A stretch of 64,000 bases of DNA from Escherichia coli (lineage in GTDB: Bacteria > Pseudomonadota > Gammaproteobacteria > Enterobacterales > Enterobacteriaceae), in assembly GCF_050320075.1 (NCBI RefSeq), contig NZ_CP190018.1. One strand, written 5' to 3'. Shown piece after piece: positions 60,942 to 64,000 of the stretch. Each line of letters opens with the position of its first letter. The stretch's first letter is position 1. A program made the translations under genes and the position numbers. The notes under the pieces are model-generated. The model worked only from the letters and a program-made list of their open reading frames with translations. It was not told where the DNA came from and ran no database searches.

Positions 60942-63900
60942 TCAGAAACGATATTCCACACTCAACATGGCAGATGTATTATGGTATCCATGTTCTCCAA
61001 GTTGAATGCCTGCATCAGCCCGGAATGCTACTTCTGGTGTTATCATTCCCACAACACCACCATTTATTTCTCCGATATCACGCGCACCATCCTGGTATAT
61101 ACTTACACCATTCATACTGGTGCCGAAAACACGACTATTGTGCAACCAGTGTGCCTCCACAAATGGTCTGAACGGAACCGCATACCGCGTATTTTTACCG
61201 TTTTTGCTGGTAAGCCATGTTCTTGCTCCCAGGCGGGTGAGAATATTTCCGTTACCGGTATTTTCAATACTGGTTCCGTTACTTTCATGATATTTGTCTG
61301 ATTTTACATTCATCCGGACAACCTGAAGCTGCGGCTGAACATACCATTCATGACTTCCCTTGTAATTGTCGGTAAACTCTCCAGCCTTCCATGAATATCC
61401 TGCTTCCAGAGATACCGTAAACCCTTTTGACTTCCATGACTCAGCAGGCAGCCGTTCTCCATTTATATGATTATCAAACCAGCTGTATTGCAGCCAGCTA
61501 TCAAGATAAGAACCATTGTGTGTTTCATCATTGGCATACCATGTTGCATAAAGACCCGCTGTGTATCCATTCATTCTTCCTTCCGAATGGTATCCGGTGC
61601 TCAGGGCATTCGTACTGTTATTATTATGACCATAGCCAGCCATCATACCTGTATGCCAGCGATCGGTACCATTCAGGCTCCACTGAGCTATATCTCCCCC
61701 TATTAACACAACGTAGCTATTCCCCCGGGTTCTCAGCTGACTACTGTTGTCACGCCAGCGATTATGTTTTCCTTTATTATACATCCAGATACCTGCTTCA
61801 TTTTCTTCTCCTGTCATGTGGCTGATATACAACTCCTGTCCCTGTCGTTCATACAGATTCGTTACAAACAGATTATTTGCAGCAGCAATACTGGCAACAT
61901 AGCTACCTGCCTCAGGACGCAAATTATTATCATGGCTTTCCGGTACAGCTTCAGGTTGTGGTACAGGAATGTCTTTTCTGCTAATCAGATACCAGTTAGT
62001 GCTGTTAATCCCCTGACCACGTTTCAGTATGTAATCATAAGCTCCGGCTGTAATACGTTCCGTCTGAATGAATTCAGCATTATCAGCATTGCCACTGACG
62101 TGAATCACTTCAATCCCATTAAGTGTCTCTGCACCAGTACCACCGGCCTGAGTAACAGCGACACGGGTACGGCCACTGGCATTACCTTTAATCACCAGAC
62201 GATCTGTTTTCGAATTGTCACCACCTGTTTCTGTCTGGAGGAGAATAAGTCCATTTCTGCCAGTGTAATTCCCTCCGACAGTCAGTATATTACCCGGCAT
62301 ATATGTAGTGAGATCGACTATACCACTATTGCTCAGATTTCCTGCAACGCCCCCAAACCCGGAGAGTTTGCCCTGCTCTTCAACAATGACCTGGTTACTG
62401 CCGAGCATCACCGGTGAATCTGCGTTCCCCAGTATCACTGTCCCCTGAATAATATCTGTCATCCCGGTCCATTTTGCGTTATCGCTAATGTTCAGTGCAC
62501 CTGCTCCCGTCTTGCGAACATTACCATAACCACTGATATTGTTGGTAAGCTGCCATGCTGATGTACTGTTCAGAGTTAATGTGCCATAGTTATCAACAAA
62601 GGCTGTCCCCAGATTATCAGCCGTGGATACAGCCAAATGAGCCCCCTTATTCACGGTAAAAACACCGGAAAAATTACGATTATTACCCGTTATATCAAGC
62701 ATTCCCCCATTTATGTTCAGAGAACCATCCCCTGCAATAGTACCTGCAGATTCTCCTCCATTATTCAGTATCAGACTTCCGCCATGAATGTTCAGCACAG
62801 AGCCTGCAGCCGTCAGTAGTTTGCTTATTGTCTGAGGATACCCATTCATATCCAGTTCTGCGCCACGGGATAAATATAAATACTCAGTCCGACCAAGAGC
62901 ATCAGGTGCAGCAAGAATTAATACGCCAGATTTAACCTCTGTATTTCCTGTATAATTGTTTGTTGCAGAAAGTATAAGAGTACCATTACCTGATTTTGTC
63001 AGACTTTTGCCGTCCCAGCCATCATATAATAAAGGTGAAAGATTATCGGAAAGAGAAACGCCTATGTTCAGAGTGGCATCTTTTTCTATATTAAAGGTTC
63101 CATATCCCATCCCTTTTGTATTATTCCATCTCAGCATGGATATCAGTTTGTTATCGTCGTCATTTAAAGACGTATAAACATAACTTTCAGCACCTTCTGT
63201 CAGTAATACATTGTATTGTACAATGTGACTATTATCAGCGATCGAGATACCTGTGTCTGACGACAATAATGTGTAATAGTCCTGAGTCCAGTTCTTAATT
63301 GATGTGTCTATATTAAGCCATGAATCACTTTTTAATGTAATAGTATTTGCGTGAACATTAGCATTTCCTACAGACAGGTTCATAGATGCGTCTTCATCAA
63401 TACTTATATTTCCGTTAAAAATGGAGTTCTTGCCTGACAGATAAACAGATGAGCCATTCCCAATCATTAGCCCACCATTAATTGCTGTTGCGTTATTGAT
63501 GTTTTTAATAATTAATTCATTTGTACCATTAACAGGTATACTAGCTAGTTTAATATCACCATTAATCACAGAATCTGAATAAATATCTAATGAATTATAC
63601 CCGCCAGAAAAAATTATTGATGTATTATAAGCATCTTTTTGGCTATTATATAATCCTGAAAGATTACCATGATTATTAATATGGATATCTTCTCCATAAA
63701 CAGAGCAACCACCGTCGGGGCCATATCCCCCCTGAACAATACCGTTATTATTCAAAGTGATTTGATTTCCAGAAATAGCATCTCCCCCTTGTTTTATTCC
63801 ATATCCTCCAGATATCATGTTGTCGTTAGTAATGAAAAGATTACTACCATTAATACCATCACCACCGTTTACGCCATTACCGCCCAATATTCCTCCGGAA

Positions 63901-64000
63901 TTATGCACTGTAATATTGCTACCGGTTACACCGGAACCACCTGTCCCACCTACATCATCACCTCCGTATATACTTCTGTAATTATCAACTATAATATCAT
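60942..64000 (-). CDS. Large AIDA-I/pertactin-type autotransporter adhesin (C-terminal part; N-terminus beyond window)
   Basis: Frame open to the window end; Gly/Asn-rich repetitive passenger; C-terminal beta-barrel ending ...SVEYRF. Confidence 0.8.
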   Translation of the reverse strand, partial: DIIVDNYRSIYGGDDVGGTGGSGVTGSNITVHNSGGILGGNGVNGGDGINGSNLFITNDNMISGGYGIKQGGDAISGNQITLNNNGIVQGGYGPDGGCSVYGEDIHINNHGNLSGLYNSQKDAYNTSIIFSGGYNSLDIYSDSVINGDIKLASIPVNGTNELIIKNINNATAINGGLMIGNGSSVYLSGKNSIFNGNISIDEDASMNLSVGNANVHANTITLKSDSWLNIDTSIKNWTQDYYTLLSSDTGISIADNSHIVQYNVLLTEGAESYVYTSLNDDDNKLISMLRWNNTKGMGYGTFNIEKDATLNIGVSLSDNLSPLLYDGWDGKSLTKSGNGTLILSATNNYTGNTEVKSGVLILAAPDALGRTEYLYLSRGAELDMNGYPQTISKLLTAAGSVLNIHGGSLILNNGGESAGTIAGDGSLNINGGMLDITGNNRNFSGVFTVNKGAHLAVSTADNLGTAFVDNYGTLTLNSTSAWQLTNNISGYGNVRKTGAGALNISDNAKWTGMTDIIQGTVILGNADSPVMLGSNQVIVEEQGKLSGFGGVAGNLSNSGIVDLTTYMPGNILTVGGNYTGRNGLILLQTETGGDNSKTDRLVIKGNASGRTRVAVTQAGGTGAETLNGIEVIHVSGNADNAEFIQTERITAGAYDYILKRGQGINSTNWYLISRKDIPVPQPEAVPESHDNNLRPEAGSYVASIAAANNLFVTNLYERQGQELYISHMTGEENEAGIWMYNKGKHNRWRDNSSQLRTRGNSYVVLIGGDIAQWSLNGTDRWHTGMMAGYGHNNNSTNALSTGYHSEGRMNGYTAGLYATWYANDETHNGSYLDSWLQYSWFDNHINGERLPAESWKSKGFTVSLEAGYSWKAGEFTDNYKGSHEWYVQPQLQVVRMNVKSDKYHESNGTSIENTGNGNILTRLGARTWLTSKNGKNTRYAVPFRPFVEAHWLHNSRVFGTSMNGVSIYQDGARDIGEINGGVVGMITPEVAFRADAGIQLGEHGYHNTSAMLSVEYRF

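Follow-up and report, generated by a model that had tools for sequence, protein, structure and literature searches.

An intact 3′ part of aatA, a gene for an autotransporter adhesin, meets IS1 at a shared junction that is very probably a rearrangement scar

The window analysed here is a 64,000-nucleotide stretch of Escherichia coli DNA whose right end falls within a large minus-strand open reading frame. At the window edge (position 64000) the frame remains open, and from there it runs down to a TGA stop codon at 60942..60944 (minus strand, read as the complement of the plus-strand letters). On the minus strand, 60942-63998 translates into 1,018 sense codons and then the TGA, with zero internal stops. 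This segment (60942..64000, 3,059 bp, minus strand) corresponds to codons 148-1165 plus the stop codon of aatA and shows 100% identity to the 3,498-bp, 1,165-aa genes of SM107, XDL, and YZLc1-3, those of SM107 and YZLc1-3 being intact. The window contains the 3′ 87% of the gene and ends short of the 5′ 439 bp and the promoter.

Sequence identity marks the gene as aatA, which encodes APEC autotransporter adhesin A and is already characterised in E. coli. It was defined as a 3,498-bp open reading frame in strain IMT5155, and its BL21 homologue, ECBD_0123, is 99% identical to the IMT5155 gene (Dai et al. 2010, PMC2944236). We find near-identity to the IMT5155, APEC_O1, and BL21 gene over the 3,498-bp frame. 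A full-length proxy gene, which equals the window part where the two overlap, differs from IMT5155 aatA by 1 nt and 1 aa (S199G), and from the BL21 gene by 6 nt; the window part itself is 1 aa away from each of the two.

Domain and structure matches uphold the initial annotation of a large autotransporter adhesin gene. Pfam detects an autotransporter β-domain (E 7.6e-35), an AC_1 autochaperone (E 2.5e-24), and PATR, VID, and Pertactin matches; among solved structures, AIDA-I 4MEE and IcsA 5KE1 and 3ML3 come closest. The C-terminal β-barrel translocator (PF03797, aa 884-1143; 61011..61790, minus strand) matches the AIDA-I β-domain structure 4MEE (E 1.4e-73, over aa 711-1165), the TIGR01414 score is 322.8 bits (cut-off 16), and the protein ends in the aromatic C-terminus ...EYRF. 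The barrel is preceded by an autochaperone and linker, to which the AC_1, Pertactin, PATR, and 3ML3 matches all point; the AC_1 domain itself (aa 717-805; 62025..62291, minus strand) matches the IcsA autochaperone structure 3ML3 with E 2.8e-24. The central passenger (62916..63311, minus strand) includes PATR (aa 480-508) and a VirG/IcsA insertion domain (VID, aa 377-434) and matches the IcsA passenger structure 5KE1 (E 2.5e-56). In translation, the N-terminal passenger (63660..64000, minus strand) consists of Gly/Asn-rich degenerate β-helix repeats of the GGxG...N-I-x-V-x-N type that run past the window. The N-terminus itself lies outside the window; the identical proxy genes begin MNKNIRILQFLVSILYSVQSHFSGAQT, and SignalP has predicted a signal peptide for AatA (Dai et al., PMC2944236). 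These matches assign AatA to the classical (type Va) autotransporters of the AIDA-I/IcsA group, with a predicted layout of Sec signal peptide (outside the window), Gly/Asn-rich β-helix passenger, IcsA-like insertion domain, autochaperone, short Pro-rich linker, and outer-membrane β-barrel anchor.

A comparison with known systems places AatA among these relatives. AIDA-I shares the type Va architecture, including a homologous β-domain and linker, but the AatA passenger is not AIDA-I-like; no aah glycosyltransferase gene lies next to aatA in the flanks inspected. The passenger and autochaperone match Shigella IcsA/VirG, VID is present, and AatA has been placed in Group 8 autotransporters alongside IcsA (review PMC9289746), though AatA differs from IcsA in being an adhesin without a known role in actin-based motility. 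AatA also falls far below all equivalog cut-offs for IcsA/VirG and the Group 8 members MisL, ShdA, YfaL, and EhaA; NCBIfam scores are 275 versus 1,200 bits for AIDA-I, 357 versus 1,297 for MisL, 181 versus 2,249 for ShdA, and 152 versus 1,459 for YfaL. Antigen 43 (flu) is likewise a self-associating autotransporter-type E. coli adhesin found on islands, and it belongs to the same broad clade as AatA (Dai et al., PMC2944236). No Ag43 structure matched at E <= 0.001, and the window, which excludes the aatA promoter, shows no sign of Ag43-style phase variation. The gene is thus neither Ag43 nor AIDA-I, with which a comparison had been proposed, but the already named aatA.

The passenger had also been described as highly repetitive, Gly/Asn-rich, and prone to length variation. 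At the protein level the description stands, with 16.4% Gly, 12.1% Asn, and degenerate β-helix repeats, but the underlying DNA is not repetitive. Tandem Repeats Finder returns only two very small arrays in the passenger DNA, and a direct-repeat search returns DNA repeats of <=36 nt at 71-87% identity and nothing able to drive slippage. We therefore dropped repeat-number change in the passenger. Isolates vary instead in an 18-bp linker repeat situated between autochaperone and barrel, whose unit, CTGTACCACAACCTGAAG, encodes VPQPEA. This repeat is the site of length differences among 8 aligned aatA copies, which carry 1 to 4 units, and frame lengths across the repeat variants are 3,498, 3,516, 3,534, and 3,552 bp. 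The window copy (61942..61966, minus strand) has one full unit and 7 bp of another (PVPQPEAVP, aa 825-833), and plasmid-borne alleles have up to 4 units. (VPQPEA)n might conceivably serve as a functional length switch for AatA passenger reach or processing, with the IS1-linked chromosomal lineage fixed at the shortest form, though we regard this as doubtful; an effect of the IS1 junction on aatA mRNA stability is a weaker second possibility. Neither proposal was found in the AatA papers or the autotransporter review consulted.

On its 3′ side, aatA abuts an IS1 element (IS1 copy 2; 60168..60935, plus strand; insAB' CDS 60223-60920). This IS1A-type copy is exactly 768 bp long and has canonical ends, IRL GGTGATGCTGCC... 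on the left and IRR ...GGAGTCATTACC on the right, with the IRR end toward aatA. The RefSeq annotation of identical loci assigns the element an IS1A-family transposase and a programmed frameshift, and its transcription is convergent with that of aatA. All that is left of the native aatA 3′ flank is GACACA (60936..60941), the same 6 bp that adjoin the stop codon in BL21 and plasmid loci. The stop codon accordingly begins 7 positions past the last IS1 base, as first reported, with 6 bp between. In BL21(DE3) and IncHI1B plasmids the native flank reads ...TATAATGTAAA, then GACACA, then TCA, and in the window IS1 lies directly left of GACACA. The proposal that IS1 removed or replaced the native 3′ flank is thus correct, since this flank persists in BL21 and the plasmids and is replaced by IS1 here.

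On the other side of the element, the IRL cuts a transposase remnant (DDE_Tnp_1_6 by Pfam and by SM107 and YZLc1-3 annotation; 59641..60165, minus strand) that lacks its N-terminus. Sequence comparison identifies a further copy, IS1 copy 1 (49896..50663, minus strand), which is inverted relative to copy 2 and differs from it at 2 positions. The pair brackets a 9.5-kb metabolic module (50664-60167, malic-enzyme/DcuC). Copy 2 is flanked by AGTCCTGCG on the left and GACACATCA on the right, and copy 1 by GATGTTGGT on the outer and GACTTCAAC on the inner side. A comparison of these four flanks in direct and reverse-complement pairings revealed no target-site duplication (8-9 bp), and no pairing fits the duplication expected from an insertion, a composite transposition, or an inversion.

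Junction counts across complete E. coli genomes come from asymmetric queries of 140 bp (E <= 1e-10), a 300-bp query being confounded by the joining of nearby pieces. The identical IS1-aatA junction is present in 191 of 5,426 genomes and the native junction in 499. The IS1 form thereby accounts for ~28% of aatA-positive complete genomes (191/~687), IMT5155 included. Its left-hand contexts are of at least three differing kinds: the window type with the transposase remnant (47 genomes), fecI-ykiE (28-29 genomes, among them IMT5155, whose chromosomal aatA adjoins fecI), and selC-int (XDL and CLSC36).

IMT5155 provides one line of comparison. Its AatA, like that of APEC_O1 and BL21, is the product of the same gene, and the window shares both the IMT5155 IS1 junction and the 5′ neighbours IS91' and IS3'. 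Left of IS1, however, IMT5155 has fecI-ykiE, whereas the window has the truncated transposase and the 9.5-kb module closed by the second IS1. The junction elements also differ, that of the window being pure IS1A. The IMT5155 IS1 matches K-12 IS1F at 16/16 diagnostic sites in positions 1-127 and the window IS1A at 56/56 diagnostic sites in positions 156-768. It is an IS1F/IS1A mosaic, the mark of IS1-IS1 recombination.

Loci at selC provide a second line of comparison. The int-side left junction (...CAGAAAATGAACG followed directly by IS1) is constant, and the right junctions lie 132 bp from the aatA stop codon in HS30-1, 109 bp in ET896, and 6 bp in XDL and CLSC36, a stepped pattern such as adjacent deletions would give. 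Loss of target-site duplications via adjacent deletion or IS-IS recombination, together with stepwise-growing deletions, has been documented for IS elements (PMC11708052). The aatA loci are alike in having no duplication, one fixed and one stepping junction, and a mosaic IS at the crossover, but their events are reconstructed from natural isolates rather than observed in an evolving lineage. One deletion alone does not lead from the selC island of BL21 to the arrangement of XDL, since aatA in BL21 is oriented oppositely with respect to the selC integrase; the change calls for at least one inversion.

We consider it very likely that the IS1 junction beside the intact 3′ part of aatA is a rearrangement scar with a single origin that later spread by IS1-IS1 recombination and left the gene functional. 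Most likely, IS1 acted intramolecularly in a selC-island ancestor, by adjacent deletion or inversion, and stripped the native 3′ flank to within 6 bp of the stop codon. An IS1-aatA-IS91'-IS3' block would then have been carried to new chromosomal contexts via IS1-IS1 homologous recombination, which include the fecI neighbourhood of IMT5155 and, in the window, the malic-enzyme/DcuC module bracketed by IS1. This order of events is the one we infer, and the selC origin with its nested deletions is a reading suggested by a handful of inspected loci. The same pattern could also result if IS1 had inserted several times independently and the copies had then recombined with one another.

Two transposition scenarios compete with a rearrangement scar as the source of the junction. 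A simple, recent IS1 transposition into the aatA 3′ flank of the source strain would have kept the native sequence on the far side of IS1. Such insertions into this AT-rich flank do occur, as plasmid pLR-06-2 shows with a clean IS1 insertion 201 bp from the aatA stop codon and an 8-bp target-site duplication, CGGTCACT. The window junction has no such duplication (AGTCCTGCG versus GACACATCA), its left flank is an unrelated transposase remnant, and the ancestor expected from a simple insertion, which would join the native flank and GACACATCA to the IRL end of IS1, turns up in 0 of 5,426 genomes. The junction is, moreover, common to 191 genomes in differing left contexts, and we regard the simple local insertion as extremely improbable. 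It is also very unlikely that aatA arrived as a single unit, as the cargo of an IS1-aatA-IS1 composite transposon. ET896, where two inverted IS1 copies flank aatA, and the inverted IS1 pair of the window lend this idea some plausibility, but the window pair encloses the malic-enzyme/DcuC module rather than aatA, and its outer flanks (GATGTTGGT and GACACATCA) show no duplication. In the collinear genomes SM107 and YZLc1-3, the 13-16 kb upstream of aatA contain no additional IS1, and the mosaic IS1 of IMT5155 favours homologous recombination over transposition.

Two other alternatives hold that the source-genome gene does not function. Disrupted aatA alleles do occur in other isolates, with IS1 or IS2 inside the gene in H26 and H49, an IS3-family element in H15 and H16, and frameshifts in ET896, whose aatA shows two apparent G-run deletions, so a lesion in the 5′ 439 bp or the promoter could make the source gene a pseudogene. 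We judge this highly improbable from near-identical genomes. YZLc1-3 is collinear with all window parts compared (5000-27000 and 50001-64000), with 4 mismatches to 50001-64000 that all fall within IS1, and its 3,498-bp aatA, like that of SM107, is intact and identical to the window part. The 1,072 bp upstream of aatA, a region that in IMT5155 contains a promoter shown to be functional, differ from IMT5155 at 0-1 positions in SM107 and YZLc1-3 (one in YZLc1-3). The inactivating mutations upstream of the window that the initial annotation had named as a possible counter-finding are thus not seen in the collinear YZLc1-3, which suggests that the whole gene is intact in the source genome. With the coding sequence untouched and the proxy promoter region matching IMT5155, aatA should therefore still yield a functional adhesin, an adhesive function also predicted for the window allele from the single amino acid that separates it from IMT5155 AatA. 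A different objection is that the junction itself silences or markedly changes aatA expression, through a lost terminator or 3′ UTR or through convergent insAB transcription, leaving a gene that is intact but functionally dead. All native 3′ flank past 6 bp is indeed gone, IS1 transcription converges on aatA, and the one hairpin resembling a terminator that the native flank has on the aatA strand, ~770 bp downstream, is lost in the window. The aatA transcript would run into IS1, antisense to insB, in place of the native 3′ UTR, and the aatA strand of IS1 offers a single weak terminator candidate ~630 nt in. However, predictions place no intrinsic terminator immediately behind the stop codon in the native flank, so none was lost at close range, and we dropped the idea that IS1 removed a nearby terminator. 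IMT5155, which carries the exact same junction, has an aatA transcript, makes AatA at the size expected, and adheres in an AatA-dependent manner (PMC2944236). These observations make silencing unlikely.

A presumably functional aatA beside a probable rearrangement scar fits within an established picture. aatA and its IS-rich flanks have been known since 2010, when IS1 was described on the 3′ side and IS2/IS91 on the 5′ side (Dai et al. 2010, PMC2944236), and replacement of a 3′ flank by IS1 without gene damage is ordinary IS behaviour in a genomic island. The aatA-IS1 junction data open no new question and have little importance past correct annotation. Our analyses add the exact breakpoint, 6 bp past the aatA stop codon, and the frequency of the junction among aatA-positive complete genomes, which include the reference strain IMT5155. 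They trace allele length differences to the linker repeat rather than the Gly/Asn-rich passenger, and the mosaic IS1 documents IS1-IS1 recombination as the route by which the aatA block reaches new neighbourhoods. These results are of use for typing aatA flank variants and for averting false pseudogene or truncation calls in a gene whose product is a recognised adhesin associated with virulence in extraintestinal E. coli, avian pathogenic strains included.

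The minus-strand frame at window positions 60942–63998 translates as 1,018 codons without a stop, is open up to the window edge and ends in a TGA codon (complement of 60942–60944) preceded by ...SAMLSVEYRF. Pfam matches in its product comprise the autotransporter beta-domain, the AC_1 autochaperone, PATR, the VirG insertion domain and a Pertactin-like stretch, and IS1 copy 2 lies alongside at 60168–60935, which bears out the initial annotation of an autotransporter gene ending beside IS1. An intact 3,498-bp, 1,165-amino acid gene (WP_001360336.1) in the SM107, XDL and YZLc1-3 genomes matches the segment at 100% identity. 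Window 5000–27000 matches YZLc1-3 as a single, 100% identical piece, and 50001–64000 matches at the same offset with four mismatches in total, all inside IS1. These mismatches (60348, 60560, 60563 and 60569, all in IS1 copy 2) point either to gene conversion among IS1 copies or to a difference in assembly. Because the segment matches the intact 3,498-bp gene of the collinear YZLc1-3, the window holds codons 148–1165, with 439 bp at the 5′ end of the gene and its promoter outside.

The autotransporter gene at 60942–64000 is aatA (APEC autotransporter adhesin A). In APEC strain IMT5155, aatA is a 3,498-bp ORF encoding a 124-kDa adhesin, and BL21 and REL606 carry 99% identical homologues (Dai et al., 2010, PMC2944236). 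The window protein differs from IMT5155 AatA at one residue (S199G), and the window part likewise differs from BL21 AatA at one residue. The gene is present in approximately 687 of 5,426 complete E. coli genomes, both chromosomal and plasmid-borne, and a few Salmonella and Shigella plasmids also carry it. AatA has been placed in autotransporter Group 8 with IcsA, MisL, ShdA and YfaL (2022 review, PMC9289746), in agreement with its closest solved structures, which include the AIDA-I beta-domain (4MEE, E 1.4e-73) and the IcsA fragments 5KE1 and 3ML3. The protein nevertheless scores far under the NCBIfam cut-offs for AIDA-I, MisL, ShdA and YfaL; in the comparison with AIDA-I and related adhesins suggested initially, it is thus related to them without belonging to any of the named families.

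IS1 copy 2 (768 bp; IRL end GGTGATGCTGCC..., IRR end ...GGAGTCATTACC) is separated from the aatA stop codon by six bases, GACACA, the previously given 7 bp being right as a coordinate difference. In BL21(DE3) and IncHI1B-type plasmids, the native 3′ flank reads ...GGATATTTATAATGTAAA followed by GACACA and TCA and runs approximately 860 bp to a relE/phd module, whereas everything left of GACACA in the window is IS1. The native flank has thus been replaced, as proposed from the first reading, but not by a simple IS1 insertion, for which neither a target site duplication (TSD) nor an ancestor was found. The two 9-bp flanks of copy 2 differ (AGTCCTGCG versus GACACATCA), and a query for the simple-insertion ancestor (native flank joined to GACACATCA and then the IRL end of IS1) matched 0 of 5,426 genomes. 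IS1 copy 1 (49896–50663), which is inverted relative to copy 2 and differs from it at 2 positions, also has non-matching 9-bp flanks (GATGTTGGT and GACTTCAAC). Inversion between the two window copies does not account for these flanks: no reverse-complement pairing fits. We consider it very likely that the IS1/aatA boundary is a rearrangement junction rather than a simple insertion. Short asymmetric junction queries place this exact junction in 191 genomes and the native junction in 499.

Known aatA surroundings include IS2/IS91 sequences on the 5′ side and IS1/IS30/IS629 sequences on the 3′ side, and a 'variant 1' flank has been typed by PCR linking aatA to fecI (Dai et al., 2010, PMC2944236). 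Using a separate left-junction query for each, we distinguished three left-hand contexts: a selC-integrase context in XDL and CLSC36, whose integrase-side junction occurs in 157 genomes, including genomes with other right junctions; a fecI–ykiE context in 28–29 genomes, IMT5155 among them; and the window-type context, with a truncated DDE transposase, in 47 genomes. The 5′ neighbours of aatA (IS91′, IS3′) are identical in kind across all three. The IMT5155 chromosome has the order fecI–ykiE–IS1–aatA–IS91′–IS3′, and its IS1 (6301–7068 of the extracted locus, between fecI and aatA) is a clean IS1F/IS1A mosaic. K-12 IS1F and the window IS1A differ at 72 sites; of these, the IMT5155 element is F-type at 16/16 in positions 1–127 and A-type at 56/56 in positions 156–768, placing the crossover between positions 128 and 155. 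Such a clean switch is the footprint left when two variants of IS1 undergo homologous recombination. Since K-12 IS1F adjoins fecI in the same orientation, the mosaic indicates that a crossover between resident IS1F and aatA-attached IS1A joined aatA to fecI. The IS1A–aatA junction predates that crossover.

In several selC genomes the left junction is identical (...CAGAAAATGAACG followed by IS1) and falls within a TPR-protein gene located downstream of the integrase. IS1 also has one orientation in all of them, but the right junctions differ: the aatA stop lies 132 bp from IS1 in HS30-1, 109 bp in ET896 and 6 bp in XDL and CLSC36. One fixed end and another advancing stepwise is the pattern of IS-mediated adjacent deletion. 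Loss of TSDs through adjacent deletion or IS–IS recombination, and deletions growing over time, are documented (PMC11708052). IS1 also occurs at distances of 53, 268 and 324 bp from the stop codon, in each case with a left junction of its own, and one plasmid has a true IS1 insertion, bounded by an 8-bp TSD, at 201 bp; the AT-rich flank is thus a busy IS1 target. In the BL21 selC island, aatA is reversed relative to the integrase, so at least one inversion belongs to the junction's history. We propose that intramolecular IS1 activity created the junction a single time, probably in a lineage carrying the selC island, and that IS1–IS1 recombination would then have carried the aatA block elsewhere, the window included; we lean modestly towards this order of events.

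Within the window the aatA coding sequence is untouched. The possibility of inactivating mutations upstream found no support in the proxies YZLc1-3 and SM107: both carry the intact gene, and across 1,072 bp of upstream sequence that includes the promoter region they show 1 and 0 differences from IMT5155, respectively. The cloned promoter region is functional, and IMT5155 expresses functional AatA (Dai et al., 2010, PMC2944236). As IMT5155 has the same 3′ junction, IS1 at this position is not inactivating. Terminator prediction gave no intrinsic candidate directly behind the stop codon in the native flank (the nearest lies approximately 770 bp away), nor within the initial 600 nt of IS1 on the aatA strand. 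Transcription of aatA would now continue into IS1, antisense to insB, and converge with that of IS1. Inactivated alleles elsewhere carry IS1, IS2 or IS3-family insertions. In ET896, aatA lies between two inverted IS1 copies and is a pseudogene frameshifted by the loss of one base from each of a G6 and a G5 run; these two deletions may be homopolymer sequencing errors.

In the passenger (Gly 16.4%, Asn 12.1%), the N-terminal part shows degenerate beta-helix repeats rich in Gly and Asn in its protein sequence. Its DNA holds no notable tandem arrays, only short, diverged direct repeats, so its reported repetitiveness applies to protein alone. Nor is the passenger the source of length variation: in an alignment of eight copies, all differences stem from one 18-bp unit, CTGTACCACAACCTGAAG, encoding VPQPEA in the linker between autochaperone and barrel (61942–61966; residues 825–833). 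Repeat number does vary among isolates, with 1–4 units giving ORFs of 3,498, 3,516, 3,534 and 3,552 bp; the window has the 1-copy form. In evenly spaced samples of matches, expanded alleles (match lengths of 3,083, 3,101 and 3,119 bp instead of 3,065 bp) made up approximately one-fifth of E. coli records and more than half of plasmid records, and were mostly plasmid-borne. We found no mention of this variation in the AatA papers and the autotransporter review consulted.

Other features of the island were also observed. K-12 homology (yjhU side) stops at 6560/6561, at the very position where, in K-12, the IRR end of IS1F adjoins fecI; K-12 IS1F likewise has no TSD. Compared with K-12, the window is island DNA from 6561 to its end. 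An IS66-family element lies at approximately 7.4–9.0 kb, and a defence cluster (approximately 15500–23600) encodes a McrB-like AAA protein, McrC, an Alw26I/Eco31I/Esp3I-family type IIS restriction endonuclease and N6-adenine methyltransferase(s). The inverted IS1 pair (49896–60935) brackets a 9.5-kb module encoding an AraC-type HTH protein, NAD-malic enzyme, DcuC, an RpiR-family regulator, a class-II fumarase/aspartase-family lyase, a porin, a DUF4886 protein and a truncated DDE transposase. With no TSD at any of the four window IS1 junctions, this module looks composite-transposon-like, reshaped by IS1 recombination. In YZLc1-3, a second large autotransporter-domain gene (27534–30000 of its locus) lies in the same island approximately 13 kb past the window end, downstream of sodC and further IS remnants.

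The initial observation is thus confirmed and its interpretation partly supported. The adhesin gene itself and its kind of IS-rich neighbourhood are both known, and the mechanism at the junction is routine IS1 biology.
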